Below are positions 12,846 to 52,666 of a stretch of 64,000 nt of DNA, piece after piece. The notes under the pieces are model-generated. The model made no database searches. It was not told the DNA's origin and saw only the letters and a list, made by a program, of their open reading frames with translations. The stretch comes from Rhodospirillales bacterium. GTDB lineage: Bacteria > Pseudomonadota > Alphaproteobacteria > CACIAM-22H2. How positions within the stretch are numbered: the stretch's first letter is position 1; every line of letters begins with the position of its first letter. The position numbers were made by a program, and so were the translations under genes. The DNA lies in assembly GCA_947445225.1 (NCBI GenBank), contig CANFCX010000001.1, positions 24,189 through 88,188 on the forward strand, in the 5' to 3' direction.

Positions 12846-15800
12846 CTAATTCCCCTGCGCGCGCTGGCCCGGCGGCGTCGCGGCGCGCGGACCGAGGGTT
12901 GCCGGCGCGGGGATGAAATCGCGGAACAGGATTTCGTCGGTGACGGTCCACGGTTGGCCGGCGGGATTGAGATAGAAGCGCCGCATTTCTTCCAGGTTGA
13001 ACGGGCGCGAGCCGATGCGGCCGAGAACGGCGATTTGACCGCCGGTTTCATCCACGCCGCGGTCGCGGTCCAGCCCCTTGGACAGGGACAGGGCCGGCCA
13101 TGAGGTCGGCGCCCAGGCGATCAGCTCGGGTTTGGGCTCGGGGCTGAAGCCGTAGAAATTCGGCTGTTTGTCGGGCGCGGTTAGGTGGACGACCTTGAGC
13201 CCGTTCACGCCGTCGGCGACATAGGCGTAAGCGGTGGCGTTGGTGGTGCCGACGATCACGTCGTGCGCGTCGTTGATCCGGCCTTCGGCGTTGTACATCA
13301 TGTACATGAAGGGCTTTTCGGGATTTTCGACGTCGACGATCGCCAGCCCCTGTTTTTTCGCGCCGACATAGGCATAGGTGCGGGCGACATAGACGCGCTG
13401 CGGATCGTCCATCGGCACGGACGCACCCTCGACCAGGCGCGGTTTGTCGGGATGGGTTACGTCCACGACCTTGAGCCCGGTGCGGTCGGTCACGAACAGA
13501 TAGCGGAATTGCAGGGCAGAGGCGCGCGCGTCGTCGAGCTTCACAACCGCCTCCAGCTTGGGCTTCAGCGGATTGTCCATGTTGAGCACAACGATGCCGG
13601 CATCGGCGGCGACGTAGAAATAATACCCGGCGATGGTCAGGTGGCGTGCGCCCTTGAGGATGTTGTTTTCGTTCCAGGTGACCGCGCGCGTCAGGAAATT
13701 GTTGCGCGGCTCGCCATCGGCCAGCGTGTTGACGTCGGTCGCGATCAAGCCTTCTTCGGAGTCGGTGATGAAGGCGTAGTTGTAGATCGGGTGGAAGGGC
13801 TGCTCCTGATTGGTCACGCGCATCAGGTCGCCCTTGTTGCGGTCGGGATGGATGGGCTGGCTGGTGGGCAACACGACGCAGGTCGCGTTTTTCGAGGCGA
13901 TATGCGTGTCTTGGCCGAACAGGGAGAACGGCGCGCTGATGATGCGCTGCGACACGCTTTTGTTGGCGATGCTGGCGGTGTCATAGACACGCATCCCGCC
14001 CTTGCCTTCGGCGACAAACAGATATTCGCCGCGCAGTTGGAGGCACGACGCCGGGCCGCCGGCGGAATGGGTGAAGGCTCCGAAAGCCGCCGAGTTGGGC
14101 AGCCGCCGGCCGCGCGCTTCGTGTTCGGCGTAAAAATCGGGGTAGGCGTATTTGTGCAGATAACTGCCGATGACCGCCTGCGGCTCTTCGATTTCGGTCA
14201 CCTGCACGGCTTCGATACCGCCGGCGCCGCCGACCCAGGCGTTGTAGCCGACGAAATTGATGAAGTTGGTCCCTTGCAGCAGAAGCTGGGCCATGATCGC
14301 GTTGTTGTCGTTGGCTTGCGACAAATGGCAATCGGTGCAGGTCTTGGTCTCGGTCTTGCGCTCCGTATGCGGATAATGCGGGGCGAAGGCCTGGCTCGAA
14401 TAACCCGATGCGGCGATCGGCGGCTGCTGGATATAGATGCGGTCGCGGTTGATGTTCTGCGACGAAAGCACCAGCGCCGAGGTCGAGCGAATCGGCGCGA
14501 TGATGCCGTTGCGAACCGGCCCGTGGCGGCCGAGCTGGAAGATTTCGTCGCGGGCGACCTGCGGGTTGTACGTGGCGAAGTTGCGGCTTTCGGTGTCTTC
14601 GTAGTGGTGCCGCGGCGTCTTGCGATTGGCCTGGATCGGCAGATGGCAGCCGCCGCAACTGGTCGACCACGACAAATGGCAGGTGAAACACGCCATCTCG
14701 TCGTCGGGATGGGCGAGGTTTTCCTCCCCGATGCCGGGGCCCCATTTCATCGACAGATCCTTGGACATCAGCTTCGCCCGCGCCGCCTTGGCGTTGTATT
14801 GCGGGCTGCTGGGATCGACGCTGTCCTTGACCAGGCTCATTTCCCATTCCAGGCCCGGCCACACCGACGAACGCTGAAACAGCTTGTTGTCGCGCCATTC
14901 GAACCGGGGACGGCCGTCGCTAAGGCGCTTCAAGGCCAAATCGCGCCCGCCCGGCGGCGCCGCCGGGCCGCTGGTGAGCAGCGTCGGATACGCCCTCGCC
15001 GTGCCGTGGCAATCGGCGCATTGGATTTCGATGGCCGCGGCGACCTCGCCGACGATATGGCCGTTGTTGTGTGCGTCCTGCGAGAAATGGCAATCGACGC
15101 ATTGCATGCCGACGTCGACATGGATCGACGACATGTGGACGGCCTTGCTGAATTTGTCCTTGTCGTCATTGGCGACTTGTTTGCCCGCCGCATCCAGCAG
15201 ATTGCCCTTGCGGTCGCGCTTGAAGATGGCGCGGAAGTTCCAGCCATGGCCGTGATAATCGGCGAATTGCGTGTCCTTGAGCGTCGGGTTGAGTTCCGCC
15301 ACCTTCCTGAGGAATTCGGCGTCGCCCCATTTGCCGCGGATGGCGGCTTCTTCGGGGTTGCGCATCAGGATGGCGTGTTCTTCCTCGGTGGTCGGATATT
15401 TCTGCTTCGCCGGCCACATCGCCTGGGCATCGGATTCATAGTCCCACATCGTGAAGCCGAGCATCGAGTTGAGGAAGATGTTCGGCTGATGCATGTGGCA
15501 GATCATGCATTGGCTGGTCGGGATGGCGTTGGTGAATTCGTGTTTGATCGGGTGCCCGGATTCACCCTTGCGGATGGTGGGATCGGCGGTCTGGGTCGTG
15601 CCGGTGCTGCCGAATTTGGCGTAGGGCCCGGAATGGCGGGGGTCGCGGTCGTTGGCGTAAACGACGTGGCAGGACGAACAGCCGGAATGGCGGAAATCGC
15701 CAGGCTGATCGTTGGTGCCCATCATCCACAAAAAGGGATCGTTCAGGCGTGTCTTGGTGATGTTGATCGCGGGCACGGCGATGCGCAAACCGGTGGCGGG

Positions 15801-16793
15801 CCCGCGGTTGGATTGCCGGATGTCGGGTCGTCCCGGCTCTTCCAGCCGCTGCAAAGCGCCGAGCGAATTGGGCAAGCCGATTTCGGGGAATTGGGTGCCG
15901 ATGTTGCGGCCGCCGCGCTCGAAAATGCGGAAGATGTCCCCCGGGGGGATGACCTCCCAGGCGGGCAGCGGCACCAGCTCGGGCAGGATGCCGCGTTTTT
16001 TCATCGCCTCGGTGGGCGCGACCGGAGCCTTCAGCGAGGCCGGCTGCCCATCGCGGGTATAGCCTTCGCCCAGGATGTAATTCTTGAACGGCAGGATTCC
16101 GTTGTTGTAGGAGGCGCCGCCCCACAACATCGCGCCGGTCGCCATCAGGCTGCGTTCGACCGCCTGAATGGTAAGCATGTGGCAGGCGCCGCAGGCCTCG
16201 CGCGCCACGCGCAGATCGCCGGGGTTGATGAAGCGCACATATTCCGGCGCTTCCTTGATGATCAGGGTGTAGGTCCGTTCCTGATTGGCGCTCGACGGGT
16301 AATGCCAGGTTTCGGGAAAACGCGGCAACACATGGGCGCCGTCCATCGCCGCCCGGTAAGCGGGCTCGTAGACCGGGGCGTGATGTTCTTCGGCATGGGC
16401 GGATTCGGTCGGCTTGATGACGATATGGGCGCCGGGCTTATAGCCGGCGAGCGGGTCCGGTTCATGGCTCGTGTCGGGGGCGTGCGCGGCCGCCTGGTCG
16501 CCGCCGGGCCCATGGCTGCCGGCCGGACGAACCACGGTGGGGTTGCCCCCGTGGCAATCGGCGCAGCCGATATTGAGGGCCGAGTTCTGATGCATGTTGG
16601 GTTGGTCGGTCGCGGTATGGCAGGTCAGACAGCCCGCGCTTTTGGCGTCGGCTTGGGCCTTGGTCTGCCCGGCCGGAGCGGGCGGCGTGAACGCGTATTT
16701 GATGTCACGCGGCTTTTCACCCTCGGCGGCAAAAACCGCGACGGCGACGCCGGAAGCCAACAGGATGCCACAGAATATCCGCCACCCGCGCAT
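12846..16793 (-). CDS. Secreted decahaem c-type cytochrome fused to C-terminal LVIVD-repeat beta-propeller (1315 aa)
   Basis: Signal peptide; ten CxxCH motifs (CLTCH, CADCH, CGACH, CSSCH, CMICH, CVDCH, CADCH, CFTCH, CGGCH, CTDCH) in first ~830 aa; C-terminal repeats LKVVDVTHPDKP / LAIVDVENPEKP / LKVVHLTAPDKQ typical of LVIVD repeats. Confidence 0.85.
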   Translation of the reverse strand: MRGWRIFCGILLASGVAVAVFAAEGEKPRDIKYAFTPPAPAGQTKAQADAKSAGCLTCHTATDQPNMHQNSALNIGCADCHGGNPTVVRPAGSHGPGGDQAAAHAPDTSHEPDPLAGYKPGAHIVIKPTESAHAEEHHAPVYEPAYRAAMDGAHVLPRFPETWHYPSSANQERTYTLIIKEAPEYVRFINPGDLRVAREACGACHMLTIQAVERSLMATGAMLWGGASYNNGILPFKNYILGEGYTRDGQPASLKAPVAPTEAMKKRGILPELVPLPAWEVIPPGDIFRIFERGGRNIGTQFPEIGLPNSLGALQRLEEPGRPDIRQSNRGPATGLRIAVPAINITKTRLNDPFLWMMGTNDQPGDFRHSGCSSCHVVYANDRDPRHSGPYAKFGSTGTTQTADPTIRKGESGHPIKHEFTNAIPTSQCMICHMHQPNIFLNSMLGFTMWDYESDAQAMWPAKQKYPTTEEEHAILMRNPEEAAIRGKWGDAEFLRKVAELNPTLKDTQFADYHGHGWNFRAIFKRDRKGNLLDAAGKQVANDDKDKFSKAVHMSSIHVDVGMQCVDCHFSQDAHNNGHIVGEVAAAIEIQCADCHGTARAYPTLLTSGPAAPPGGRDLALKRLSDGRPRFEWRDNKLFQRSSVWPGLEWEMSLVKDSVDPSSPQYNAKAARAKLMSKDLSMKWGPGIGEENLAHPDDEMACFTCHLSWSTSCGGCHLPIQANRKTPRHHYEDTESRNFATYNPQVARDEIFQLGRHGPVRNGIIAPIRSTSALVLSSQNINRDRIYIQQPPIAASGYSSQAFAPHYPHTERKTETKTCTDCHLSQANDNNAIMAQLLLQGTNFINFVGYNAWVGGAGGIEAVQVTEIEEPQAVIGSYLHKYAYPDFYAEHEARGRRLPNSAAFGAFTHSAGGPASCLQLRGEYLFVAEGKGGMRVYDTASIANKSVSQRIISAPFSLFGQDTHIASKNATCVVLPTSQPIHPDRNKGDLMRVTNQEQPFHPIYNYAFITDSEEGLIATDVNTLADGEPRNNFLTRAVTWNENNILKGARHLTIAGYYFYVAADAGIVVLNMDNPLKPKLEAVVKLDDARASALQFRYLFVTDRTGLKVVDVTHPDKPRLVEGASVPMDDPQRVYVARTYAYVGAKKQGLAIVDVENPEKPFMYMMYNAEGRINDAHDVIVGTTNATAYAYVADGVNGLKVVHLTAPDKQPNFYGFSPEPKPELIAWAPTSWPALSLSKGLDRDRGVDETGGQIAVLGRIGSRPFNLEEMRRFYLNPAGQPWTVTDEILFRDFIPAPATLGPRAATPPGQRAQGN

Positions 16794-16801
16794 CGGCTAC
16801 C

Positions 16802-18688
16802 TCAATAAGTCAGGATCAGATTGGCCAGGACGGAATAAAAGAGGTCCTGGCTGCGGCTGGTTTCGTACAGATCGCGCAGCCCGTCGCTCGGCACCAAGAC
16901 CGCGCCGGACAGCCGGAACACGATGTTCTGCATGAACAGAGGCCGGTAGATCGCGGCGACCGAAAGGTCATAACCGATGTCGTGATGGATGTCGGCCTGG
17001 TTGCGGAGGAATTCGAGCGAGGAGGTATCCATGAATTCCAGCTTGTTGAAATTCGTGGACAGCCGCAGTTCCGGGGTCACGTCCATGTCGGTGCCGAAGC
17101 CGAGCAGCCGGATGCCGGGATTGTTGAAATTGGATTGCCCGATTTCCTTCGACGGGCGCAGCGACGGCAACACGCCGTTGCGGGGCGAAAGGGCGACACC
17201 GCCGCCGCCGATGAAGGGGATCGACTGGCGTATCCAATAGCTGGTGTCGGCGCCGGCGAATTGCGGGTTCTCGAAGATGGCGTCGAAACCCTCTTCCCGG
17301 TTGTCGAAGGGGTCCTTGTCGCCGCTGGCGACCAAAGCGGAGGCGCGCACGCGGATCCAGTCGAAATCGATGGAAGGCTCGATCGCGGCGAAATAGGCGC
17401 GAATGTCCGACTTATCGATTCCGCTGAACTGGTTATGATCGTCGGTGCCAAAGGCGTAATAGGCCGAGCCGGTCAGGTTGAGCCGGCCGAAATGCCCGTC
17501 GCCGTTGAGGCCGAGATAGTGGACATCGTATTTGCGCGGCCGCTGGTCGCCGATCGTGGCCGGGCGCTGCAGGAAGAAGTTCTTGTCGTAGTAGAAATCC
17601 TCGCTCTCGTCGTTGACGTTGTACATATACGTCGCCTGCGAGGTGAAGCCGACCACCGGGAAATCCTGCGCATAGACATTGGCAATATAGATATCGTCCT
17701 TGCGCAGCGGCTGGCCGATGTCGTTGAGGCCGCTATTGGTGTCCTTTTCCAGCCGGCGGAACCAGGCCAGATTGTATTGATAGAGGTTGTTCGAGCGGTT
17801 GCCGAACAGTCGCGCGCCCAACTGAATGTCCTGGAACACGAAGCCGCGGAAATCCGAGGAAAACGGCTGGATGCCGATGCGGATCGAATCGAAATCGTAA
17901 CGGTCCGACACGTTGCGTAGGTGATAGTCGATGAAGCCTTCCTGGAAGGCGATCATGTTGTCGGAGCGCACGGTGCCCTGGTTGGGGTCGGCGAACAGCA
18001 CGCCGCGTTCCTCGACCTCCGCGCGGTTGTATTGAATGACCGGCGTGATGCGGAATTCGTAATCGGGCGGGCGGTAGGCGGTGTCGCCCTTGATCAGCGA
18101 GGCGCTCAAGATCACGGTCTCGACGAACACGTTTTGGTTGGTGTCGCCGAACAGATCGACGGAGTTGGCGCGCCGCGTGGTCGAAATGCCCACCGGAATC
18201 GGCGTGCGCCGCGGCTCGTAGACCGTGTCCGAAATCGCGCTGAGGTTGATGAACCAATCGTCCCACAGCGGGCGGTCGCCTTTGAGCGTGTTCTGGTTGT
18301 ACGGGTCCCACCAGCGTTCGTTGACGCCGATCGCCTCGATCAGGCGCCAGCGATCCGGGATCGGGATGAATTCGCGCGGCAACACCGGCGACGGCGGCGG
18401 CACGGCACCGGGATCGGTGATCGGAGCCACGCGCGGCGGCGCGGGCGGCGGCGCGCCGGGCCGCCGCTGATCCTGGGCGACGATGGGCGCGACGGCGCCG
18501 GGTTGGGGAATTCCGAAATTGCCAGGGCTTCTCCCCGCCGGGGCGAGGAGAGGCGATTCCTCCTTGCCGGCCCAGGCCGGAACGGGAAGGCTCACCGCCG
18601 CCAGGGCCAAAATAAGGGGCAGCGAAGCCAATCCCGAAAGTCCGACCGTCTTTGTCCGCCGGCGCATCCTAGATGACCCCGCACACAT
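16802..18688 (-). CDS. Outer-membrane beta-barrel protein (porin-like, ~620 aa)
   Basis: Signal peptide MRRRTKTVGLSGLASLPLILALAAVSLPVPAWA (ATG at 18667 probably the true start); alternating amphipathic strands; C-terminal ...LANLILTY aromatic terminus typical of OMPs. Confidence 0.7.
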   Translation of the reverse strand: MCAGSSRMRRRTKTVGLSGLASLPLILALAAVSLPVPAWAGKEESPLLAPAGRSPGNFGIPQPGAVAPIVAQDQRRPGAPPPAPPRVAPITDPGAVPPPSPVLPREFIPIPDRWRLIEAIGVNERWWDPYNQNTLKGDRPLWDDWFINLSAISDTVYEPRRTPIPVGISTTRRANSVDLFGDTNQNVFVETVILSASLIKGDTAYRPPDYEFRITPVIQYNRAEVEERGVLFADPNQGTVRSDNMIAFQEGFIDYHLRNVSDRYDFDSIRIGIQPFSSDFRGFVFQDIQLGARLFGNRSNNLYQYNLAWFRRLEKDTNSGLNDIGQPLRKDDIYIANVYAQDFPVVGFTSQATYMYNVNDESEDFYYDKNFFLQRPATIGDQRPRKYDVHYLGLNGDGHFGRLNLTGSAYYAFGTDDHNQFSGIDKSDIRAYFAAIEPSIDFDWIRVRASALVASGDKDPFDNREEGFDAIFENPQFAGADTSYWIRQSIPFIGGGGVALSPRNGVLPSLRPSKEIGQSNFNNPGIRLLGFGTDMDVTPELRLSTNFNKLEFMDTSSLEFLRNQADIHHDIGYDLSVAAIYRPLFMQNIVFRLSGAVLVPSDGLRDLYETSRSQDLFYSVLANLILTY

Positions 18689-20558
18689 TCTGCGCCTTGG
18701 TAATGCCCAGGAAGGGGGTGAACGGGCAACTGACGTAACGCAGCCGAGTGCCGCGCGGGGACAGGTTGTCCGACCGCACGGCCGGGCGCGCGTTGCTCAA
18801 TCCGTTGCCCTTGCCGCCATGATAGAGGCCAAGCGCGGCGATCATGTCGTCCTGGTCGATGCCATCGCCCGAAACGCCGACGCCGCCGACCAACACGCCG
18901 TTGCGGTAGATCGGCACGCCGCCGGCGAATATCTGGATGCCGTTGGCCAGCCGGTTGGACCCGCCGGCCGCGGCGACCGCTGCCAGCCCGGTGCAGCCAG
19001 CGGCGTTGGTGGCGTTGCCGGGGTTGGTCAGGTGATTGGCGATGTCGGTGGAGACGAGGTCGAGCTGCAGCCCGGTGCTGAACGGGCTCCATTGCTGAAA
19101 GGGACGGCTCAACGGCCCCACCGACTGGCCATCGACGCCATCGGGGAAATAGGGGCGCGCGATGTTGCCGATGGCGCGAGCGCTATACGCGATGCCGTCG
19201 GCGAAAGCGGTCGGCCCGATCAAGGACCGTGCCTGGGCAATGTAATCGACGGCCAGCGCCAGCGCGGTGATTTCCGCGCCCGCGGTCGTCCGCGAGAAAA
19301 ACACGGCGGTTCGGCCTTTTTGCAGTGACACGTCGGTGCCGAAGACGGGCGCATCGGGGGTACGCACCAAACCCAGGACCAGGCCATTGGTGTCGACCAC
19401 ACTGATGGTGACCTGGGCGTAGCTGCCCAGCGGGCGCCGGATTTGCGCACGCGCCAGAAGCGCCACATCGAGGGCATGGCGCAGGATGGAGTTGACCTCG
19501 GCGGCGGTCAGCACATTGGCCGCGCCACCCACCACGGTGGCGGCGTCGCCACCGGCGGTCGGCGGAAAACGGTTGGCGCCGGCCGCGTTTTCCAACACGA
19601 AGGCGCGGCCGTTGTTGAAGACGCCGCCCGGATCGGGGATGTAGCCCGAACCCGCCGCGCCGAAAACCTGACCGGCGATGACGGCGGCGTTGGCATAACC
19701 GGCGACCGCGACCAGCGCCCCACCGGCGGGCGGGAAAGCCGGGGCCGAGCTGGGGTTGCTGCGGAAATCGGCCGGCGTGGCGTCCGAATAGCGGAGCGTG
19801 CGACCACCGGCGGTGATGCGGTTGGCGCGAATGTCGATGGGCGCGTCGAAGCCGTTGGTCCCGGCCAGCGCGATGACCTCGTCGGGATCGACGTCGCGAT
19901 TGATGATGTCGAGATCCAGGCTGTAGACACCATCGGAGATGGCGCCGACGCCGCCGACGACCCGGCCGTTCTTGTACAAGGGGAAGCCGCCGGTATCGGC
20001 GGACAACCCGGCAGGCGAACGTTTGGGGCCGCGCGTGGCCACGCCGGGGAATTGCAGGTTCAGGTCCGAACACGGCAATTGGCTGAATTGAACGCCGAAC
20101 AGCGGGCCGCCGGGCTGTTGTTTTTCGCCGACGTTGAAATGTTCCTGGACGATCTGGCTGGCCACCCGGGTGGAAAACGCGTTGCCGGCGGACGACAGAT
20201 AAGCGCCGGTGACCGCCTTGGCGATGGCCAAGAGGGTATCGGTATTGGCGATGGCGGCGCCTTCGAGGCCGGTGGCGACACCGCGCCCGGAACTGACCGT
20301 GATCGTCGTTGCGGCGCCGGTCATGCGGAAGACGCCGAGCACGTTGCCGACGCGATCGACGACGGCGATGGTGGCCAACCGGCCGCGCGCCGTGGCCTCC
20401 GTCACCGCCTGCGAAATCACCACGCCGACATCGGCGACCGTGAGGTTCTGCGCGCGCGCCGGAGCGGCGGACAGGGCGGTAAGACCGGCTAGACCCAGCA
20501 GGACCGCGAGAACCCGCCGCGCGACATAGTTCCCGGTCATGGCGGTCCTCGCGGTCAT
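18669..20558 (-). CDS. Secreted protein with two tandem GlcG/HbpS-like (DUF336, haem-binding/degrading-type) domains
   Basis: Signal peptide; motifs RLATIAVVDRVGNVLGVFRMTGA and QVTISVVDTNGLVLGLVRTPDAPVFGTDVSLQKGRTAVFFS, plus GGVGVSGDGIDQDDMIAALG typical of GlcG family. Confidence 0.7.
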   Translation of the reverse strand: MTARTAMTGNYVARRVLAVLLGLAGLTALSAAPARAQNLTVADVGVVISQAVTEATARGRLATIAVVDRVGNVLGVFRMTGAATTITVSSGRGVATGLEGAAIANTDTLLAIAKAVTGAYLSSAGNAFSTRVASQIVQEHFNVGEKQQPGGPLFGVQFSQLPCSDLNLQFPGVATRGPKRSPAGLSADTGGFPLYKNGRVVGGVGAISDGVYSLDLDIINRDVDPDEVIALAGTNGFDAPIDIRANRITAGGRTLRYSDATPADFRSNPSSAPAFPPAGGALVAVAGYANAAVIAGQVFGAAGSGYIPDPGGVFNNGRAFVLENAAGANRFPPTAGGDAATVVGGAANVLTAAEVNSILRHALDVALLARAQIRRPLGSYAQVTISVVDTNGLVLGLVRTPDAPVFGTDVSLQKGRTAVFFSRTTAGAEITALALAVDYIAQARSLIGPTAFADGIAYSARAIGNIARPYFPDGVDGQSVGPLSRPFQQWSPFSTGLQLDLVSTDIANHLTNPGNATNAAGCTGLAAVAAAGGSNRLANGIQIFAGGVPIYRNGVLVGGVGVSGDGIDQDDMIAALGLYHGGKGNGLSNARPAVRSDNLSPRGTRLRYVSCPFTPFLGITKAQNVCGVI

Positions 20559-21025
20559 TGCGCGATACCCACCCGGAACACGCCGAATTTGAAGCTGTCG
20601 GCCGTGCGATAGGCAACGATCACGTTAAAAGGGAATTCCTGGCCGGTGAGGTCTTCCTTCAACACCTTGAAGACGAGCCGGTTGCCGACGGGCTGGATGC
20701 GATTGTCGATCAGATGGTCGGTGTCGCCGTCCCAGCGCACCCAATAGCCGAGATTGCTGCGCTGCAGCAGCAAATTTCCCCAGGGTTTGGCGATGACATA
20801 GGTGGCGAGCGGCTGATCGCCGTGCAGATCGATTTCGCGGATGATCTCGGCGGCCTCCGGGCGAATGGCGATCGGCGCCAGCATCGCACCTTCAACGCTC
20901 AACGCCTCGCCCCGGCCGGACGCCGGGGCCAGCAACGCCAACGCCATGAAAAAAAAGGTAAATCCAAATCTGGACGGACCGGCTTTCGGTCGTGTTCCAC
21001 TTGGATCGTGCGCCAACAGCGCCAT
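20555..21025 (-). CDS. Small secreted hypothetical protein (~156 aa)
   Basis: In-frame ATG (MALLAHDPSG...) downstream of cytochrome stop; hydrophobic FGFTFFFMALALLAPASG signal-like segment; 4-nt overlap with next gene. Confidence 0.5.
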   Translation of the reverse strand: MALLAHDPSGTRPKAGPSRFGFTFFFMALALLAPASGRGEALSVEGAMLAPIAIRPEAAEIIREIDLHGDQPLATYVIAKPWGNLLLQRSNLGYWVRWDGDTDHLIDNRIQPVGNRLVFKVLKEDLTGQEFPFNVIVAYRTADSFKFGVFRVGIAQ

Positions 21026-21072
21026 CCGGTCATCCCCCATTTTTTTTGCCCGGCCAACAAAGCCGCGCCACT

Positions 21073-22779
21073 TTAACGCGGCGCGCCCGTTTGGCCAACC
21101 CCCGGCGCGCCGCCGACGGCTTGCGGACGCATCGGACCCATGGCCGGCGTGTGGAAGACGTGGCAGGCCACGCAGGTCGACGGCACCAACGTAGTCACTT
21201 CTTCCCCGCCATGGCAGCGGCGGCAATTGGCGATCCCCGGGAGCAGGACCTCGGAACTGGCAACGGATTTCGGCGCGGCGTGGCAATCGACGCAATCGGT
21301 GTTTTTGTGTTTGCTGTGATCGAATTTGCCCTTGGGCATCCAGGTCGCCGCCACGAACACCGGCTTGACCCGGAAATTGGGTCTCTCGTCGAGCCGGGTC
21401 GTCCGTTCGACGAGGTGGCAACTCCCGCAGATGCTCTTGCCGTAGACGATCTCGATGGTCGCATCGGCGCGGCTGCGCGCCCAGGCCAGCGCTTCGGTGC
21501 GCGCCGCTTCCTCGATCGGCGTGCCGGCACGGCGACGCACGGCGGCCGGCGCCGTGGGATCCTCGAAACCGCCTTCGAGTGCGACGCGGCCGTAGAAATC
21601 GTTGAGGACCTTGGCGACTTCGTCGGGTTTGCCATGCGGCACTTCGCGGTCGAGCGCCTGGGCCTCGAACTTCAATTTGTGGCAATCGCGGCAATCGGTC
21701 TCCATGTCAACCGCACGCATGCCCACGCCGCCGGTCTCCGGGCGGTGGCAATCATTGCAGACCATTTTCTGCAAGCCGGTGGGGCCACGCACGCCGGCTG
21801 GCACCAAATGTTTGTCATGCGGGAAGATTAGGTTGGAATTTTCCTTCAGCGCCGGATCACCGATCGCCAACCGCGCCAGGGTCCGCGTTGCCGGGTCGGT
21901 CACCACCGACGGCCGAAATTCGGGGTGATCGCGGCCGAAATCGCTGACGTTGATCAGCTTGGTCGTGGGGATGATCGCGGTCAGCCGCACATGGCAATCG
22001 TCGCACAAGGCTTGCGCCGTCTGGATCGCCGGCTGCCGGCCTTGATGTTCCTTGTGGCAAGACGCGCAGCGAGTCTCTTCCAGTGCCGGCAGTTGCACCG
22101 TCTTCACATCGGCGTGGTGGGCGATGTCGCTGTGGCAGGTAAGGCAGGCCTGGTCCTGGACCATGATGAAGGGCCGCTCGTGGCAGGTCGTGCAATCACT
22201 CGCGAAATATTTGTGCACGCCGGAGATTTCGCCGGATTCCCATGACTTGTCCGCCGCGATCGGCATCGCCGTCATGCTTTTGTGAAGGTCGGGTATGAAA
22301 AAGGCAGCGACCGGAAGGACCAGGAAAAGCAGGAGCACGGTGGCGAACGCGGTCCACGACAATACGCGTTTGCTGAACGCGGCATCACCCAGGCGGGCAT
22401 GGCTGCGCTGCGTTAGTTCGGCGAGATCGTCTCCCAGCGGCTGCACCAATTCGACGGTAACCGCGACGCCATAGCCAGGCGGCGCTTCCACCACATCGAT
22501 CTTGTAGGGACCGACGGCGATCGAATCGCCGGGCCGGACACGACCTGAATTGGCGGCGGCGCCATTGATGGAAAGATCGTTGCTGCCAACCGCGGAGGCG
22601 TAGACCTGGCCCTCGCGCACATGTATTTCGGCGTGGTCGAGCGCGACCCGCGGATCAGGAAGATAGACTTCGTTCTTGGTGCCGCGGCCGATGCGGATGA
22701 ATTCCACGGTGGCGTCTTGGTCGCGCCGGGAGACGCCACGATTGCCGCGCCGAGTCAAATAGCCGACTTGGACAAGCAC
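21073..22779 (-). CDS. FHA domain - transmembrane helix - periplasmic decahaem c-type cytochrome fusion (568 aa)
   Basis: N-terminal FHA (IRIGRGTKNEVYLPDPRVALDHAEIHVREGQVYASAVGSNDLSINGAAANSGRVRPGDSIAVGPYKI), TM VLSWTAFATVLLLFLVLPVAAFFIP, then ten CxxCH motifs (CTTCH, CLTCH, CASCH, CDDCH, CNDCH, CRDCH, CGSCH, CVDCH, CRRCH, CVACH); GTG start with GGGAG SD. Confidence 0.85.
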   Translation of the reverse strand: MLVQVGYLTRRGNRGVSRRDQDATVEFIRIGRGTKNEVYLPDPRVALDHAEIHVREGQVYASAVGSNDLSINGAAANSGRVRPGDSIAVGPYKIDVVEAPPGYGVAVTVELVQPLGDDLAELTQRSHARLGDAAFSKRVLSWTAFATVLLLFLVLPVAAFFIPDLHKSMTAMPIAADKSWESGEISGVHKYFASDCTTCHERPFIMVQDQACLTCHSDIAHHADVKTVQLPALEETRCASCHKEHQGRQPAIQTAQALCDDCHVRLTAIIPTTKLINVSDFGRDHPEFRPSVVTDPATRTLARLAIGDPALKENSNLIFPHDKHLVPAGVRGPTGLQKMVCNDCHRPETGGVGMRAVDMETDCRDCHKLKFEAQALDREVPHGKPDEVAKVLNDFYGRVALEGGFEDPTAPAAVRRRAGTPIEEAARTEALAWARSRADATIEIVYGKSICGSCHLVERTTRLDERPNFRVKPVFVAATWMPKGKFDHSKHKNTDCVDCHAAPKSVASSEVLLPGIANCRRCHGGEEVTTLVPSTCVACHVFHTPAMGPMRPQAVGGAPGVGQTGAPR

Positions 22780-22803: not shown

Positions 22804-23661
22804 TTACCAGTAGAAGAAAACGGAGAAAACGTGGGTCGTCAGCGCCGCCAAAAGGCCGACCGACAACGGCACGTGGAACATCAGCCAAATTTCCAGGAAA
22901 GCCCGGTATTGCACGTCGCGCCGCGCGCGACCGACAAGGTCGCTCTTGCGGCTCAACAAGGTCAGCAATTTACGCACGGCGACGGCGTCTTCCACCGAGA
23001 CCTTGGTCGCGAGTTGTTTGATCCTGGCCAGCGCGCGCGAAGTCGGGCAATTGGGATCGCGGCCGGAAAGCTGACGCCACACCGACCCGCCGATCTGAGT
23101 ATTGCGTCCGGAATCGAGCACCGCCCGCGTGATCTCGTCGGGCAGTCCCATGGAAACTTCGCGGCTTTCGGTATCGAGCGCGGCGATGCGCGTGAAAATC
23201 TCGGTCAGTGTCAGCCCGCCGCGGTTCTGGGTCATCAAGGCGGGATACCGTTGATAGAAAAACACGCCGAACACGCCCGACAGGATGACCAGCATCATCA
23301 AGGTGTAGGCAAGCGTATGCACGTTCCAGCCGAACTGGAACCCGGTGTGCAGCGTGGCCACGACGATCAGCGCGAGGCCGAGATAGACATGCGCCGATAG
23401 CCAGCCCTGAAGTTTCGTCGGACCCTGGTTGTACCGCCGTTTACGTACGCCGAACCACATCAGCCACAGGATCAAGCCCGCGCCGATCGTGCCCAACACA
23501 TAACCGAGCCACGTGCCGCCATTGGGCGGGTCCAACGGGCTGTGGGCGCCGTAGACGATCGCAGCCGCCAGCGCGCCCAGGACGGCGACCTTCAAATACC
23601 GGAAGTTGCGGTAGACGAGATAGGATTGATGCATCGTCTTTTGGCTGTTGGCCGACCTCAA
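22804..23661 (-). CDS. Polytopic membrane protein with conserved intramembrane histidines (candidate b-type haem/quinol-interacting subunit)
   Basis: 285 aa, five predicted TM helices each with His (SAHVYLG, TLHTGF, NVHTLAY, MFHVPLS, TTHVFSV); TTG start overlapping upstream stop (TTGA). Confidence 0.55.
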   Translation of the reverse strand: MRSANSQKTMHQSYLVYRNFRYLKVAVLGALAAAIVYGAHSPLDPPNGGTWLGYVLGTIGAGLILWLMWFGVRKRRYNQGPTKLQGWLSAHVYLGLALIVVATLHTGFQFGWNVHTLAYTLMMLVILSGVFGVFFYQRYPALMTQNRGGLTLTEIFTRIAALDTESREVSMGLPDEITRAVLDSGRNTQIGGSVWRQLSGRDPNCPTSRALARIKQLATKVSVEDAVAVRKLLTLLSRKSDLVGRARRDVQYRAFLEIWLMFHVPLSVGLLAALTTHVFSVFFYW

Positions 23662-26057
23662 AGACCCCGGTTAGACAGCGAGAAGAATTCCTCGGGGCTG
23701 ACACGAATGGCGGCGCCGGTCGGACAGGCCCGCACGCAGGACGGGCCGCCTTCGATGCCTTTGCACATGTCGCATTTCACCGCCATCTTGCGTTTGTTCG
23801 GGTCTTTTTTCTTGCCGTGGGTGGCTTCCCAATCCTCGCCCGGCCCGTGGCCCAGCCCGAACAACATCCAGGCCAGCAAGCCCGGCTTGGCCGGCGGCTC
23901 CGCCGACATGTGAATGACGTGATAAGGACAATTGCGCTCGCAATTGCCGCAACCGATGCATTTTTCGTCGATGAACACTTCACCATTGGGCGAACGGTGG
24001 ATGGCGTCGGCCGGGCAATCGGACATGCAATGCGGGTGTTCGCAATGCCGGCACGAGGTTGGCACATGGATCGAGGCATAGGTCGGGCCGGCTTCGCGAT
24101 CCAGCCGCGACACCCCGTGATGGGTCTCGGCGCAGGCCTTTTCGCAATTGTCGCACCGCACGCACAGCGATTCGTCGATCAACAGAACGTCGGTCGCCTC
24201 GCCCAAACCTTGGTCGAGCAGGAACTGCATCAGATTCGAATGGTCGGGCCGGCCTTCCATGCGGGCGTTTTCGACGAGCCGTGCCTGGAACCGAGATTCG
24301 ACCTCGACGCGCAACTCGGGCGAGCGATCGAGCAGGCCGCGGAAGGCGCCGCCATCGAGTTTGATGGCCTCCGTCGCCACCGCCGCCCGCACCGTGGCGG
24401 TGCGCGGGCTCTTGGTCAGCAGCGCCATTTCGCCGACATAATGGCCGGCGGGGACATAGGACAAAACCACGTCGCGGCCGCCCAGGTTGCGCGCCACGGT
24501 CACCGACCCGCTGCGGATCAAATAGACGTTGTCGCCGATATCGCCTTCCTTGATCAGCACGTCGCCGGCGCTGAAGGACTGGATCGTGGCCGTGCGCACG
24601 ACATCGACCAGGTCGCGCTTGGAGACCTGCGGCGCTAGATGCGTCTGCACCTGGCGGATCATGGCGGTTTCGTCGAGCACACGTTTAGCCGCGGCGATCG
24701 AACGGGTCAGCTTGATAACCTGCCGGCGCGGGGTCTCGATCAACACGCAATCGGCGCCCGCCACCACCGTCGCCGTGCGCCGGCGGCCGGAGATCAAACC
24801 CATCTCGCCGAAGAATTCGCCGGTCTTCAGCGTCACCTTGATCGCTGGGTTTTCGGCGCTGACCTGGACATCGACCGACCCCGACAGGATCGAATAGAAG
24901 CTGTCGGAATAATCGTTGCGCTTGAAAACGATCTCGCCCTGTTTGGGCACATGGACGTCGCTGTCGAGCAGGAATTCGCGAAGCTGCAGCTTGGTCAACG
25001 AGGAGAACATCGGCACGCGCTGCTGCACGCCCTCCAGGAACTGCGAGACGGTCACCCCTTGCAGCCCCGTGAGTTTTGCCTCGAGCAGCGGCTCGTCCGC
25101 CGGCTTCACCTCATGCCCGAGGATATATTCGACCACCTCGTAGCCCTGGTTCATGCAGTGTTTGATCAGGGGATAACCGGCGAGCGCGCCGATGATGTAC
25201 AGCCCCTTCACGTTCGATTCGTAGCTGTCGCTGACCCCCGGAACCGAGGCCGGATCGGCGTTGGGGAACACGATGCCGCAGGCCTCGACGAATTTGCGCG
25301 GCGGCAGGGCGCCGATACGGGCGATGACCCGGTGGCACTTGACCACCGCCTCGCCCTCCGGCGTTTTCAGGAAAATGGCGCTGGGATCGGTCTCGACCTT
25401 AATGACCTTGGTATTGAAATAACACTGGATGCGGCCTTCCTTGATGGCCGATTCGATCAGCGCGACGTTGCCCGCCTTGGCGCGCGCGAAATCACCCATG
25501 ACGTTGACGACGATGACCTCGTTTTGGGCGGCCAGCGCGATGGCGTTTTCGAGCCCGGCATCACCGGCGCCGATCACAACGATGGTTTCGTCTTTGTATT
25601 CTTCCGGGTCGTCGAGTTGGTACTGGACGTTGGGGCCGGTTTCGCCGGGTACGCCGAGGGTGCGGATATTGCCCTGCAACCCAATGGCGAGCACGACGGC
25701 ATCGGCGGTGAGCGTTTGTTTGTTGGCGAGCGTGATCGTGAAGATCGCGCCTTCCTTCTTGATGCCCGCGACATCGGCGTTTTGGCGCAGGTTGAATTTC
25801 AACTCGCCGGCGCTTTTGTCCCAGGAACCGAGGATGGTTTCGCGGGCGCCTTCCTTGAATTGAAGATCGCTGCGCAGGGGCAGGACCTCCGGCGTCGCCA
25901 TGACGTGTTTTTTCTTCTGATACTTGTAGATCGTATCGGAAAGATGGGTGGTGCGTTCGAGCAGCACATAAGACGCGCCACGCTTGGCCGCGCGTCCCGC
26001 CGCGCTTAATCCGGCCGGGCCCGATCCGACAATCGCGATCGCATAGTGTTCGGCCAT
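23658..26057 (-). CDS. FAD/NAD(P)-binding oxidoreductase fused to two cNMP-binding domains and a C-terminal 4x[4Fe-4S] ferredoxin domain (799 aa)
   Basis: GSGPAG and GAGDAG dinucleotide folds; two CRP-type cNMP signatures (FGEMGLISGRRRTATVVA; VGEMALLTKSPRTATVRA); four Cys clusters CVRCDNCEKAC, CRHCEHPHCMSDCP, CIGCGNCERNCP, CDMCKG..CVRACP. Confidence 0.85.
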   Translation of the reverse strand: MAEHYAIAIVGSGPAGLSAAGRAAKRGASYVLLERTTHLSDTIYKYQKKKHVMATPEVLPLRSDLQFKEGARETILGSWDKSAGELKFNLRQNADVAGIKKEGAIFTITLANKQTLTADAVVLAIGLQGNIRTLGVPGETGPNVQYQLDDPEEYKDETIVVIGAGDAGLENAIALAAQNEVIVVNVMGDFARAKAGNVALIESAIKEGRIQCYFNTKVIKVETDPSAIFLKTPEGEAVVKCHRVIARIGALPPRKFVEACGIVFPNADPASVPGVSDSYESNVKGLYIIGALAGYPLIKHCMNQGYEVVEYILGHEVKPADEPLLEAKLTGLQGVTVSQFLEGVQQRVPMFSSLTKLQLREFLLDSDVHVPKQGEIVFKRNDYSDSFYSILSGSVDVQVSAENPAIKVTLKTGEFFGEMGLISGRRRTATVVAGADCVLIETPRRQVIKLTRSIAAAKRVLDETAMIRQVQTHLAPQVSKRDLVDVVRTATIQSFSAGDVLIKEGDIGDNVYLIRSGSVTVARNLGGRDVVLSYVPAGHYVGEMALLTKSPRTATVRAAVATEAIKLDGGAFRGLLDRSPELRVEVESRFQARLVENARMEGRPDHSNLMQFLLDQGLGEATDVLLIDESLCVRCDNCEKACAETHHGVSRLDREAGPTYASIHVPTSCRHCEHPHCMSDCPADAIHRSPNGEVFIDEKCIGCGNCERNCPYHVIHMSAEPPAKPGLLAWMLFGLGHGPGEDWEATHGKKKDPNKRKMAVKCDMCKGIEGGPSCVRACPTGAAIRVSPEEFFSLSNRGL

Positions 26058-26244
26058 GCCGGTCCGCCCCCTCGGACACGTCAGCGTTTGTCGAGACCCC
26101 CCCGAACCCGAATCGACGCTTTACGAAAGGCCCGCGCCGCCAGGATTTCATATACACGTTAGGGTTATAGACCGACGGTTGTCAATTTCGGAGTGTCCTT
26201 CTACAGTGCATTTCTGTCCGGTCGAACGCACCCGCAACAGGGGG

Positions 26245-27933
26245 AACCATCGGGTGACGAAGCGGCAAGCTTTGCATCGCCTATCGCTAAAATCCGCGGC
26301 CGGCGCCGTGGCGTTGGTTTGCCTTGCCGGATCGGCGGTGGGGCAGGTCGCCGGCAGTGGCTGGATCGTCGATCCGCGATCGGGTTGTGCAACCAGCAAT
26401 CCCTTTCCCAAGGACGGCGAGAGCATCGCTTGGTTTGGCGGCTGCCGCGACGGCAAACTCGACGGGCCCGGCCTGCTTATCTGGTACCGAAGCGGGTTTG
26501 AGGCCGAACGCGACGAGGGTTTTTTCCAAGGCGGGGAGCTGGACGGACCGGCGACGATCACCTTCGCCGACGGTAACTCCGTGCGCGGCGATTACCGCAT
26601 GGGTGAACGCCATGGCGAGTTCCTCGTCCATCAGCGCGACGGAACCGCCCTTTATCGCCTCTACGATCTCGGCCGGCTCGCCGCCGAACGCCCGGCCACC
26701 GGCGAAGATGCCGTGCGCCTCCAATCGCGTGCGACCGCCGCCGTCGCCCCAATCGCACCCACGCCCGTGCCGGCCGCCCCACCGCGCGCCCAAGCGGCGG
26801 CGCCTCCTGCCATGGCCGAACCGGAACCCAGGCCGATGGCGGCCGCGCCGATCGAGCCGCTGCGGCCGCAGCCCGCCCCGCCACCATTGGCCAGCCTGAC
26901 CCCACCGCCACCGCCGCCGCCGCTGCCCGCCCCCACCCGGCCTTCGACATCGGCGGCATTCGGCAGCGCGGCGCGCAGCGACGTCGAAATCGACCTGGGC
27001 GTGTTGGCGTCGCTGCGGGCGCCATCGGCGGCGTCCTCCAGTCGATCGACCGCGCCGGTGAAGCTGCGTCCGCCTCGGGCGGCCGCGCCAACGGCGGCGA
27101 CGCGACGCGCCCCGGTCCAGGCCGCGGTTCGGCCCGCCGTGTTCGTCGATGCCTCGGTGATCGACGGTCTGGGCGCGGTTCGCGCGGTCGCCGCCGCCAG
27201 GCCCGCCGCCACCCGCGCCAACTTCGTCCAGCAATCCGCCGCGCTGGTGCCGGATTGGTACTTGCCCGCGGGACAGACTTTCGCTGCGGCGGACTACACC
27301 CCAGCCGCCGCGCCGATCTCCGCGGTCACGCCTGAAATTCTTTTCGCCGAGGGCTACCGCCACGAGCGCGACGGGCGCATGAGCCAGGCCGAGGCGCTCT
27401 ACGATACCGTCTACCGCCTCTATGCCGAAACGCCGATGGCAGTCCTCGCCGGGGAACGCCTGGCCTGGGTGCGGCAGCAAACCACCGGTTTGCCCATGCC
27501 GCAGCAAACCATGCTGGCCGCCGCCGGAAGTGCCTCGATCGGGCAGTCCACGACCCCGATCGGGCGGTCAACCGCGCCGATCCCGCCGGCGACGACACCA
27601 ATGTCGCCCGCGACCGCGACTTTCGCGCCGCCGCAGCCGTCGGCGCCGCCGGTGCAGTCCGCGCAAATTCCGGTCGCCGCCGTGGTGCGTTCACGTGTGG
27701 GCGCCTATCTGTGCACCGTCGATGGGCTGTATTCCAACAGCTCGCGCTGGTGCGGCGTTGTCCGCCGTGAATATGACCGTTATTTCGAGGTCGAGGTCAG
27801 CAAGGTGACGATCAAGACGCCGCTGGCCGTGGGCTTTAACAGTTCGGCCTGTACCGGCAACAAGTTCATCGGCTATTTCTCTTTCGGCGAGCGCGTCTGG
27901 GTACCCCAGAATTGCATGGCGGAGACTCTTTAA
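26245..27933 (+). CDS. Secreted MORN-repeat protein with Pro/Ala-rich linker and Cys-containing C-terminal domain
   Basis: GTG start 26245 with GGGGGAA SD; signal peptide VTKRQALHRLSLKSAAGAVALVCLAGSAVGQ; MORN-like repeats WFGGCRDGKLDGPGLLIWY..GFFQGGELDGPATITFADGN..GDYRMGERHGEFL. Confidence 0.6.
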   Translation, partial: NHRVTKRQALHRLSLKSAAGAVALVCLAGSAVGQVAGSGWIVDPRSGCATSNPFPKDGESIAWFGGCRDGKLDGPGLLIWYRSGFEAERDEGFFQGGELDGPATITFADGNSVRGDYRMGERHGEFLVHQRDGTALYRLYDLGRLAAERPATGEDAVRLQSRATAAVAPIAPTPVPAAPPRAQAAAPPAMAEPEPRPMAAAPIEPLRPQPAPPPLASLTPPPPPPPLPAPTRPSTSAAFGSAARSDVEIDLGVLASLRAPSAASSSRSTAPVKLRPPRAAAPTAATRRAPVQAAVRPAVFVDASVIDGLGAVRAVAAARPAATRANFVQQSAALVPDWYLPAGQTFAAADYTPAAAPISAVTPEILFAEGYRHERDGRMSQAEALYDTVYRLYAETPMAVLAGERLAWVRQQTTGLPMPQQTMLAAAGSASIGQSTTPIGRSTAPIPPATTPMSPATATFAPPQPSAPPVQSAQIPVAAVVRSRVGAYLCTVDGLYSNSSRWCGVVRREYDRYFEVEVSKVTIKTPLAVGFNSSACTGNKFIGYFSFGERVWVPQNCMAETL

Positions 27934-36368: not shown

Positions 36369-36434
36369 GGCCAAAGCATGGGACGCGGAGTCGGGCGCGT
36401 CAATGAGAGCGAAACCAAGGTCGAGGCCGTAACG

Positions 36435-37400: not shown

Positions 37401-37404
37401 CCGC

Positions 37405-40160: not shown

Positions 40161-40163
40161 GCG

Positions 40164-52662: not shown

Positions 52663-52666
52663 CGAC

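Follow-up and report, generated by a model that had tools for sequence, protein, structure and literature searches.

We describe gene A, a 799-codon gene located in a 64,000-nucleotide stretch of contig CANFCX010000001.1 from a Rhodospirillales bacterium (assembly GCA_947445225.1, positions 24,189 to 88,188 of the forward strand), the whole of which is hereafter called the window. The product of this gene fuses a flavoprotein, two cyclic nucleotide monophosphate (cNMP)-binding (CNB) domains, and a four-cluster ferredoxin, and it is a real, widely conserved yet uncharacterised bacterial protein. The parts of A are all familiar but their assembly is not, and A most likely provides the electron input of a widespread transmembrane cytochrome system that is essentially uncharacterised. 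More specifically, in the scenario that we favour, with a probability of roughly 0.5, A is the cytoplasmic electron-input subunit of an inner-membrane complex with the products of the next two genes, B and C, and this complex would function as a cNMP-gated outward conduit to periplasmic cytochromes. The observations on which the A-B-C model is built are the integrity of the gene, its domain content, the conservation of cofactor and ligand residues, synteny, and natural A-B and FHA-A fusions.

Gene A encodes an intact, widely conserved fusion protein

23658..26057, minus strand: gene A, 799-aa flavoprotein - 2x cNMP-binding - 4x[4Fe-4S] ferredoxin fusion (open reading frame, Pfam, full-length family)
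25098..26057, minus strand: A aa 1-320, flavoprotein domain with two dinucleotide-binding motifs and no redox CxxC (Pfam, AlphaFold2, Foldseek, motifs)
24648..24977, minus strand: A aa 361-470, first cNMP-binding domain (site A), cassette FFGEMGLISGRRRTATV at aa 415-431, nt 24765-24815 (Pfam, PfPKG/PKA alignment)
24258..24647, minus strand: A aa 471-600, second cNMP-binding domain (site B), cassette YVGEMALLTKSPRTATV at aa 540-556, nt 24390-24440 (Pfam aa 493-578, alignment)
23661..24185, minus strand: A aa 625-799, four-cluster (HycB/FdnH/DmsB-type) ferredoxin domain (16 Cys, Fer4_11, HycB alignment)

The original prediction for this locus, made from the sequence alone, gave the correct coordinates of the gene, but the strand had to be corrected: the frame of exactly 799 codons lies on the minus strand, running from the ATG at 26057 to the TGA at 23660-23658, with a Shine-Dalgarno-like GAGGGGG ~9 nt 5' of the start, and the plus-strand frame at 23658..26057 is riddled with stops. 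That A is a single 799-aa polypeptide is borne out by its relatives. The 120 best in the database are all 766-831 aa long, with 96-100% coverage; the closest one, of 799 aa and 98% identical, comes from an independent Rhodospirillaceae metagenome-assembled genome (MAG), the rest are 59-66% identical, and the names given to relatives are only 'cyclic nucleotide-binding domain-containing protein' or COG-style triple names. Full-length relatives were detected in at least 579 species genomes (a scan with one genome per species), and a search of 1.84 billion 50%-identity representatives gave 978 matches at E<=1e-30, including ~38 full-length representatives down to ~30% identity. Among the matches listed, the hosts belong to the Alphaproteobacteria (Rhodospirillales, Zavarzinia, Nisaea, Oceanibacterium, SAR116), the Gammaproteobacteria (many Lysobacterales, Steroidobacteraceae), and the Betaproteobacteria (Burkholderiales, Usitatibacter). 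The reading of the 799-aa frame as an artefact of assembly or annotation, that is, two or three merged genes, is refuted by the length, spread, and divergence of these relatives, and is further countered by the nearly identical protein in the independent MAG and by the unbroken helical linkers that join the domains in the AlphaFold2 (AF2) model; no frameshift or split gene was seen, with full-length relatives throughout, and nothing was found in favour of such an error, which we consider practically impossible. The AF2 model, obtained with a 120-sequence alignment, has a pLDDT of 77 and a pTM of 0.63, with pLDDT of ~90 in the flavoprotein, 75-90 in the CNB domains, and 50-65 in the ferredoxin domain, which was modelled without cofactors. 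A hydropathy scan (max KD19 1.51) detected neither a transmembrane (TM) segment nor a signal peptide in A, which is therefore cytoplasmic.

The domain annotation proposed along with the original prediction, when carried out with Pfam, yielded Pyr_redox_3/2, two copies of cNMP_binding, and Fer4 families. Residue conservation was scored in 81 homologues, which represent the window's clade, and the wider superfamily was sampled with 39 representatives. In the N-terminal part, Pyr_redox_3 covers aa 9-290 (E 1.8e-33) and Pyr_redox_2 covers aa 6-305. The FAD motif GSGPxG at aa 11-16 is followed by E34, with G11, G13, P14, G16, and E34 all invariant or nearly so, and the same holds for G163, G165, D166, A167, E170, and N171 of the NAD(P)H motif, GAGDA at aa 163-167, whose G-x-G-D core is retained in all 39 superfamily representatives. 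A 2'-phosphate motif like that of thioredoxin reductases (TrxR) and ferredoxin-NADP+ reductases (FNR), N185-R186-[RK]187-x-E-F-A-R192-A-K194, is present in 77 of the 81 homologues; with V186 and M187 (nt 25497-25502) in place of the arginine found in 77/81 and the basic residue at 187, the window's own A is the sole outlier, which hints at an altered specificity, perhaps for NADH, in its lineage.

The flavoprotein was originally described as thioredoxin-reductase-like, and this is correct with respect to the fold, although the domain is not a thioredoxin (disulfide) reductase. Foldseek against the PDB places YpdA/Bdr (7a7b; TMt 0.87, 22% identity) first, followed by TrxR-like FNRs and thioredoxin reductases, and the PDB sequence search aligns the N-terminal domain with YpdA/Bdr and thioredoxin reductases. 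No conserved Cys pair exists within aa 1-320 of the homologues, where C212, C241, and C260 are partially conserved and unpaired. The absence of a conserved CxxC, combined with the YpdA or TrxR-like FNR fold, suggests that the flavoprotein would be a pyridine-nucleotide:iron-sulfur reductase rather than a disulfide reductase. Two more specific assignments were rejected: low-Mr thioredoxin reductase (TIGR01292), with 62.5 bits vs a cutoff of 343 and no CxxC, the FAD and NADPH motifs being present, and the YpdA/Bdr bacillithiol-disulfide reductase (NCBIfam TIGR04018), with 132.8 bits vs a cutoff of 339.9. The YpdA family has a conserved Cys within the first glycine-rich motif, whereas position 15 of A is G, A, or S in 79/81 homologues and C in 2/81. 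A shares with the TrxR-like FNRs (B. subtilis YumC/BsFNR, C. tepidum and R. palustris FNR) and with YpdA/Bdr the two-Rossmann fold (Foldseek E 1e-22 to 5e-26); it has the FAD and NAD(P)H motifs and lacks the TrxR CxxC, so that by analogy it may let NAD(P)H and an Fe-S protein exchange electrons. It differs from all of these in its low identity (about 20%, with ~17-20% to the FNRs), in the two inserted CNB domains, and in that its Fe-S partner is fused in cis and has four clusters; in addition, its first glycine motif is without the Cys typical of YpdA.

At the opposite end of the protein, the predicted polyferredoxin tail holds up in full. Pfam Fer4 families span aa 664-782, with Fer4_11 (PF13247) scoring 38.8 vs a cutoff of 26.2 bits, and aa 625-790 align end to end with the four-cluster HycB (7z0s_B, 5-171). 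The four Cys motifs (C632/635/638/642, C669/672/677/681, C700/703/706/710, and C762/765/774/778) comprise 16 cluster cysteines, every one of them invariant both in 81/81 homologues and in 39/39 of the distant representatives. The third motif is followed, ahead of the fourth, by a hydrophobic, Gly-rich loop, PGLLxWxLFGxGxGPGE, at aa ~724-740 (nt 23880-23935), with W730, G734, G736, and P739 conserved in the family; this loop is a candidate contact with the membrane or with B.

Between the two redox modules, Pfam identifies two copies of cNMP_binding (PF00027; 132.8 bits vs a cutoff of 27.5, E 4.4e-39), the second at aa 493-578. The residues of the phosphate-binding cassettes, for which an alignment check had been proposed, are in place at both sites: in cassette A (FFGE415-418...R427-[ST]-A-T), G417, E418, and R427 are present in 81/81 homologues and A429 in 73/81, and in cassette B (G542-E543...R552-[ST]-A554-T), G542, E543, R552, and A554 are present in 81/81. 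Otherwise, no part of A is less conserved than these domains, in which only 10-15% of positions are invariant, and invariant cassettes amid such variability are a signature of selection on the ligand site. Both cassettes align, residue for residue, with their counterparts in PKA RI-alpha and in P. falciparum PKG, and the tandem aligns contiguously with PKG CNB-A/B and with PKA RI-alpha 68-267. The domains were originally considered to be of the CRP type; two cNMP-binding domains are indeed there, but they form a PKA-R/PKG-like tandem, without a helix-turn-helix (HTH). A CRP/FNR transcription factor was rejected, given that Pfam detects no HTH family and that the CRP equivalog scores 87 bits vs a cutoff of 266, via the CNB part only. 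More generally, no output domain (kinase, HTH, GGDEF, and others) was found in A by Pfam and NCBIfam scans. Stand-alone proteins with the CNBx2-Fer4 (P0352) and flavo-CNBx2 (P0319) architectures exist and keep canonical cassettes, which implies that the CNB tandem is the common hub. There is also a homologue of 1212 aa (P0252), with several hundred extra residues near the CNB region, where the inserts carry repeated '...HIRIFDA/HLRIFNS...' segments.

A heads a conserved operon encoding a candidate di-haem membrane protein and a decahaem cytochrome

22804..23634, minus strand: gene B, 276-aa 5-TM protein (285 aa from the TTG at 23661) (His conservation, AF2, PF01292 matches)
21073..22779, minus strand: gene C, 568 aa, cytoplasmic FHA - one TM (aa 137-167) - periplasmic decahaem cytochrome c (Pfam FHA, Cytochrome_C7/c3; CXXCH)

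On the minus strand, A is the first gene of an operon, A-B-C-(D)-E-F-G, in which genes are separated by gaps of 8-32 nt or overlap, and which is annotated in the same order in Zavarzinia and Nisaea. In the 82 loci examined, B lies directly 3' of A in 58 of the 74 with enough sequence, and C is downstream in 50 of 63; the 16 exceptions to the A-B arrangement include 11 loci with the permuted order C-E-F-G-(tetrahaem)-A and 5 in which A is alone. The operon context is kept across three proteobacterial classes, in agreement with the original notion that A leads a cytochrome cluster. Natural fusions point in the same direction. One homologue (P0244) is an in-frame A-B fusion, whose aa 794-1110 are 39% identical to B (E 7e-70), and C alone follows in this locus (a 44.5-kb contig), implying that A-B-C can be a stand-alone core module. 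Another (P0256), encoded by the first gene of a full A-B-C-E-F-G cluster, carries two canonical FHA domains in front of A in a single polypeptide, which places the FHA function in the cytoplasm, with A. Together, the A-B and FHA-FHA-A fusions and the stand-alone A-B-C locus indicate that A, B, and C form one core complex. A gene for a ~440-aa tetrahaem, cytochrome c554-like protein adjoins A in 29/82 loci (including L002, L003, L008, L041, and L046), being divergent from A in Alphaproteobacteria and located between G and A in Betaproteobacteria; tblastn produced no match to it in the 64-kb window.

The membrane partner B is probably a di-haem cytochrome b. Four His residues, H91 and H105 in TM3 and H263 and H277 in TM5 (numbered from the TTG), are invariant in 43/43 homologues, and the members of each pair are 14 residues apart, at matching membrane depths. 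The protein has a ~110-aa cytoplasmic helical insert, and its AF2 model has a pLDDT of 86. The match of the window's B to PF01292 (cytochrome b561/Ni_hydr_CYTB), at 18.9 bits, is under the cutoff of 30.1; 102 of 119 B members match this family at E<=0.01 (best 1.4e-7), a distant similarity only. The TM domain of NADPH oxidases (NOX) and ferric reductases (FRE) (PF01794; E 0.09, 13.3 bits vs 28) was rejected for B; moreover, here the dehydrogenase is separate and has another fold. The TGA/TTG overlap of A and B noted previously exists, the TTG at 23661 overlapping the stop of A in TTTGA, but it is unlikely to be the real start of B: nearly all homologues are 274-278 aa long, so the true start is probably the ATG at 23634, 23 nt past the stop of A, and the coupling of the two genes is still tight.

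C has 10 CXXCH motifs, as do 50 of its 51 homologues. Its FHA domain (PF00498; 31.2 vs 20.7 bits), which also matches the YscD-type FHA family that does not bind phosphothreonine, contains G31-R32 in 50/51 and N72 in 40/51 homologues, and the canonical phosphothreonine-contacting Ser is mostly Ala (Ser in 2/51). This FHA may serve in docking and not in the recognition of phosphopeptides.

A proposed mechanism and its alternatives

Hydropathy marks A as soluble and assigns 5 TM helices to B and a single one to C, whose FHA domain lies inside. In the model proposed here, NAD(P)H would reduce the FAD in the TrxR-like domain of A, from where electrons would travel down the four fused [4Fe-4S] clusters; the ferredoxin domain would dock on B from the cytoplasmic side, and the two b-haems stacked within B, the one ligated by H91 and H263 near the inside and the one ligated by H105 and H277 near the outside, would cross the membrane and hand electrons to the ten periplasmic c-haems of C. 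In the window's organism, C would pass them on to the exported partners E, F (a probable outer-membrane barrel), and G, the decahaem protein with the beta-propeller. The CNB tandem, situated between the flavin and the Fe-S modules, would be an allosteric gate, with cAMP or cGMP reorienting the modules to switch the flow on or off, a mode of control proposed by analogy with the helix rearrangements of PKA-R and PKG. Two considerations favour the outward direction: with its potential of -320 mV, NAD(P)H donates electrons readily, and the membrane potential helps to carry them from its negative side over to the positive one, the reverse being doubly uphill. Altogether, we infer the occupancy of the cofactor sites, the geometry of the A-B-C contacts, the outward direction, cNMP gating, and the final acceptor.

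Gating is one component of this scenario against which there is evidence to be considered. The G-E...R core of the cassettes is kept in only 24/39 superfamily representatives at site A and 20/39 at site B, a partial loss which implies that the CNB fold is also a structural scaffold, and we infer both ligand binding and gating by these domains from their sequences. Conceivably, then, the A-B-C complex is real, but its CNB domains are structural spacers, sensors of other ligands, or dimerisers, with electron flow being constitutive or controlled elsewhere, for example, by the FHA domain of C or through transcription. The 16 cysteines and the NAD(P)H motif persist in all 39 representatives, including those with eroded cassettes; a protein 33% identical to A (P0302) has the full architecture with degenerate cassettes; no cyclase is conserved near A; and CNB-fold domains elsewhere bind haem, 2-oxoglutarate, or nothing, as exemplified by CooA and NtcA. 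Yet, the cassette core is invariant throughout the window's clade, in what are the least conserved domains of the protein, it aligns residue for residue with the cGMP and cAMP sites of PKG and PKA, and the stand-alone P0352 and P0319 keep it in canonical form, so that we deem a purely structural or otherwise cNMP-independent role unlikely in this clade. It looks as though the redox scaffold is universal and the CNB fold is part of it, whereas ligand competence is a selected trait of a large subset that includes the window's clade.

A different possibility, which we find doubtful, is that B reacts with quinones, as CbcL and FdnI do, and the complex is either an NAD(P)H:quinone oxidoreductase with a periplasmic cytochrome branch or an uptake route from the periplasm to quinone or the cytoplasm. 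The sole family-level similarity of B is to PF01292, and the characterised members of this family, FdnI, HyaC, and the b domain of CbcL, react with quinones (PMC9129911); a preprint on Ferrigenium (10.64898/2026.01.22.701106) proposes that an FHA-nonahaem cytochrome feeds quinone; and the module is found in lithotrophs as well as heterotrophs. However, a quinol:cytochrome c reaction requires neither an NAD(P)H flavoprotein nor a four-cluster wire, the transfer of electrons inward to NAD(P)+ has to work against the redox potential and the membrane potential alike, and most hosts among the matches listed are aerobic heterotrophs (Lysobacterales, Rhodospirillales, SAR116); no quinone-site motif turned up, although no search was aimed at one. 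Still less probable, in our estimation, is that A primarily senses the NAD(P)H/NAD(P)+ ratio and cNMP and signals to the cytochromes, with little net flux. Such a role would account for the two sensory-type inputs and for FHA, typically a signalling domain, being present on C and, in some lineages, on A, but A has no output domain in the scans described above, a four-cluster chain with 16 invariant Cys is the hallmark of a wire rather than a sensor, and A pairs obligatorily with a TM di-haem candidate and a decahaem protein. The cNMP-gated electron input or output module envisaged in the original prediction stands as the best-supported hypothesis, with the operon and the cassettes in its favour, although the gating is putative, the cassette core being kept by only part of the superfamily.

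Relationships to known systems

The docking of four-cluster ferredoxins on di-haem b subunits is the rule in FdnGHI and NarGHI. The C-terminal domain of A, which aligns along the whole of HycB and matches Fer4_11, and B, with its five TM helices, two candidate bis-His sites, and weak similarity to PF01292, resemble the FdnH-FdnI and NarH-NarI pairs, as well as HycB/HybA. Unlike the Fdn, Nar, and Hyc systems, A-B-C has no molybdo- or Ni-Fe catalytic subunit, a flavoprotein being the input instead, and the proposed flow is from cytoplasm to periplasm without quinone; in addition, B is below the Pfam cutoff and has a unique cytoplasmic helical insert, in contrast to FdnI and NarI. In functional logic, the putative path from a cytoplasmic reductant via stacked b-haems to an acceptor across the membrane would be analogous to NOX/FRE and to Hmc/Tmc of Desulfovibrio, and the NOX His pairs are likewise on TM3 and TM5. 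However, B shows no detectable homology to NOX/FRE (Ferric_reduct E 0.09), and the systems also differ in the fold of the dehydrogenase, in the Fe-S clusters placed between donor and haems, and in the acceptor, which here would be a chain of multihaem cytochromes and not O2 or Fe(III) itself.

With regard to regulation, A resembles the PKA regulatory subunit and PKG in the contiguous CNB-A/CNB-B alignment over ~200 residues, with both cassettes conserved, but the regulated partner in A is a redox chain in cis and not a kinase. The R-T/S-A-T sequence of the cassettes is found in cAMP and cGMP binders alike and does not tell specificity. Fusion of CNB to an effector other than a transcription factor is also known in the mycobacterial cAMP-regulated acetyltransferase Pat and in family 2B encapsulins, both of which appear in the NCBIfam scan of A as partial matches via the CNB domains, although the effector in A is an electron-transfer chain. 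To our knowledge, no characterised enzyme has cyclic-nucleotide sensor domains inside an electron-transfer chain, and in the literature we found no cNMP-regulated redox enzyme with sensor domains so placed.

Known bacterial routes to periplasmic and extracellular multihaem cytochromes start from quinol (CymA, CbcL, ImcH), and none is known to begin with an input subunit devoted to NAD(P)H and Fe-S. The nearest characterised analogue of B plus C is Geobacter CbcL, in which a di-haem b domain is fused to a nine-haem c domain and is fed by the quinone pool (PMC9129911). Common to CbcL/CbcBA and the system described here are the di-haem b domain, a candidate one in B, the nine- or ten-haem periplasmic c domain, and, in our model, the passage of electrons toward the outer surface (PMC9129911; bioRxiv 10.1101/2021.04.15.440034), but CbcL is one polypeptide fed by menaquinol, whereas here b and c are the products of two genes, a further subunit would provide the NAD(P)H/Fe-S input, and CNB and FHA domains are present. 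Literature searches on domain names, multihaem cytochromes, FHA, LVIVD, and HbpS recovered no description of A or of the cluster, save for one 2026 preprint (10.64898/2026.01.22.701106). Its section 6.3.2 reports, in Ferrigenium straubiae, a module that combines an FHA-nonahaem cytochrome with a 5-TM protein and with a [4Fe-4S] protein of the cytosol, calls this module novel and of unknown function, notes that the combination of FHA with multihaem had not been reported earlier, and proposes that the module links Fe(II) oxidation to the quinone pool, with inward flow. The three-gene logic and the topology (cytosolic Fe-S protein, 5-TM protein, single-TM multihaem protein with cytosolic FHA) are those of A-B-C, a likeness drawn by description only. 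As described, the Ferrigenium module includes no mention of flavin or cNMP domains, its TM protein is without redox motifs, the cytochrome has nine haems rather than ten, and the neighbourhood is different (nirK, SHP).

Exported partners and genomic surroundings

26058..26260, strand not assigned: upstream intergenic/promoter region of the operon (sequence)
20555..21040, minus strand: gene D, ~160-aa exported protein, alphaproteobacterial loci only (tblastn, 13/82 loci)
18669..20558, minus strand: gene E, exported, 629 aa, two HbpS-like/GlcG (DUF336) domains (Pfam HbpS-like E 7.7e-21, 2 stretches)
16802..18688, minus strand: gene F, 628-aa exported protein, probable outer-membrane beta-barrel (signal-like N-terminus, weak Alginate_exp E 0.04)
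12846..16793, minus strand: gene G, 1315-aa exported decahaem cytochrome with a C-terminal LVIVD beta-propeller (10 CXXCH, LVIVD Pfam)

The region upstream of A (26058..26260) contains one weak promoter-like match only, on the plus strand, with no inverted repeat and no Rfam match. D, which is a called gene of 148 aa in Nisaea, has no Pfam or NCBIfam match. E and F are syntenic in 49/82 and 47/82 loci, respectively, and E begins with an RR-containing, Tat-like signal. G is the best conserved member of the cluster, with 60-70% identity across classes; its residues 555-604 give a local, 50-residue NCBIfam match (E 1.8e-15) to ExtM of the Geobacter selenite/tellurite-reduction operon, and no match was found among PDB sequences.

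The rest of the window is ordinary chromosome, with genes for ATP synthase, priA, xerC, type II secretion (T2SS), and cobalamin biosynthesis. A membrane cyclase, 16 kb from A, that had been suggested as a source of the ligand for A is a real ORF at 42664-44505 (minus strand; weak dCache_1, Guanylate_cyc E 4e-26), namely, a membrane class III cyclase. Although it is possible that this cyclase feeds A, the idea finds no comparative support: cob and secretion genes stand between the cyclase and the operon, and only 3/82 loci have a cyclase gene less than 10 kb from A. These three loci are gammaproteobacterial (L016 148-2328, L064 4770-7061, and L062 6718-7797), with the cyclase on the same strand, 1-3 genes 5' of A; the cyclases themselves differ (a CHASE2-like membrane form, a GAF-GAF-PAS form, and a short form), and gdhA, dapD/ispA, or an unidentified gene lies between.

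The gene for the GspD secretin is at 29157-31295 (minus strand), ~3 kb upstream of the operon, and T2SS genes also adjoin the A cluster in Nisaea and SAR116 loci (L002, L017, L022, L079). This proximity suggests that one exported cytochrome of the cluster may reach the cell surface via the T2SS. The divergent ORF at 26056-27933 (plus strand) encodes 625 aa, is Pro/Ala-rich, and has a weak MORN match; its listed start overlaps the ATG of A, but a signal-peptide-like stretch at about residue 80 suggests that the true start is probably further downstream. It is followed by an ORF with a PPC pre-peptidase domain (27912-29117, plus strand), and neither of the two is conserved beside A elsewhere, bar weak PPC matches in 5 loci. 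Groups of cobalamin-biosynthesis genes occupy 33858-42685 and 52616-53989 (CobQ/CobB-type amidotransferases, CobD, CbiC, CbiG/methylases); an Rfam gathering scan of the whole window detected no cobalamin riboswitch or any other RNA family.

Implications

Tentatively, and with appreciable doubt, we submit that A-B-C could represent an unrecognised class of respiratory-type systems for quinone-independent, second-messenger-gated export of electrons from NAD(P)H across the inner membrane. It would be a functional analogue of eukaryotic NADPH oxidase and ferric reductase, connected to multihaem cytochromes, with a wide distribution among aerobic members of the Alpha-, Beta-, and Gammaproteobacteria. 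If so, together with E-F-G and the T2SS genes, A-B-C could be a source of NAD(P)H-dependent extracellular reduction in heterotrophs, which might serve reductive metal acquisition or detoxification, or else produce extracellular superoxide, and a common gene cluster of soil, freshwater, and marine Proteobacteria, with A encoded in hundreds of species genomes, would gain a function. For the module that was singled out as novel in the Fe(II) oxidiser Ferrigenium (10.64898/2026.01.22.701106), the model also makes predictions that can be tested directly.

Should the gating be real, A would be an electron-transfer enzyme that doubles as a cAMP/cGMP effector, the first such case, and cAMP or cGMP would control electron flux directly, at the post-translational level, adding a new class to the second-messenger effectors. 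A would then also present a compact, genetically encodable switch for bioelectrochemical engineering.

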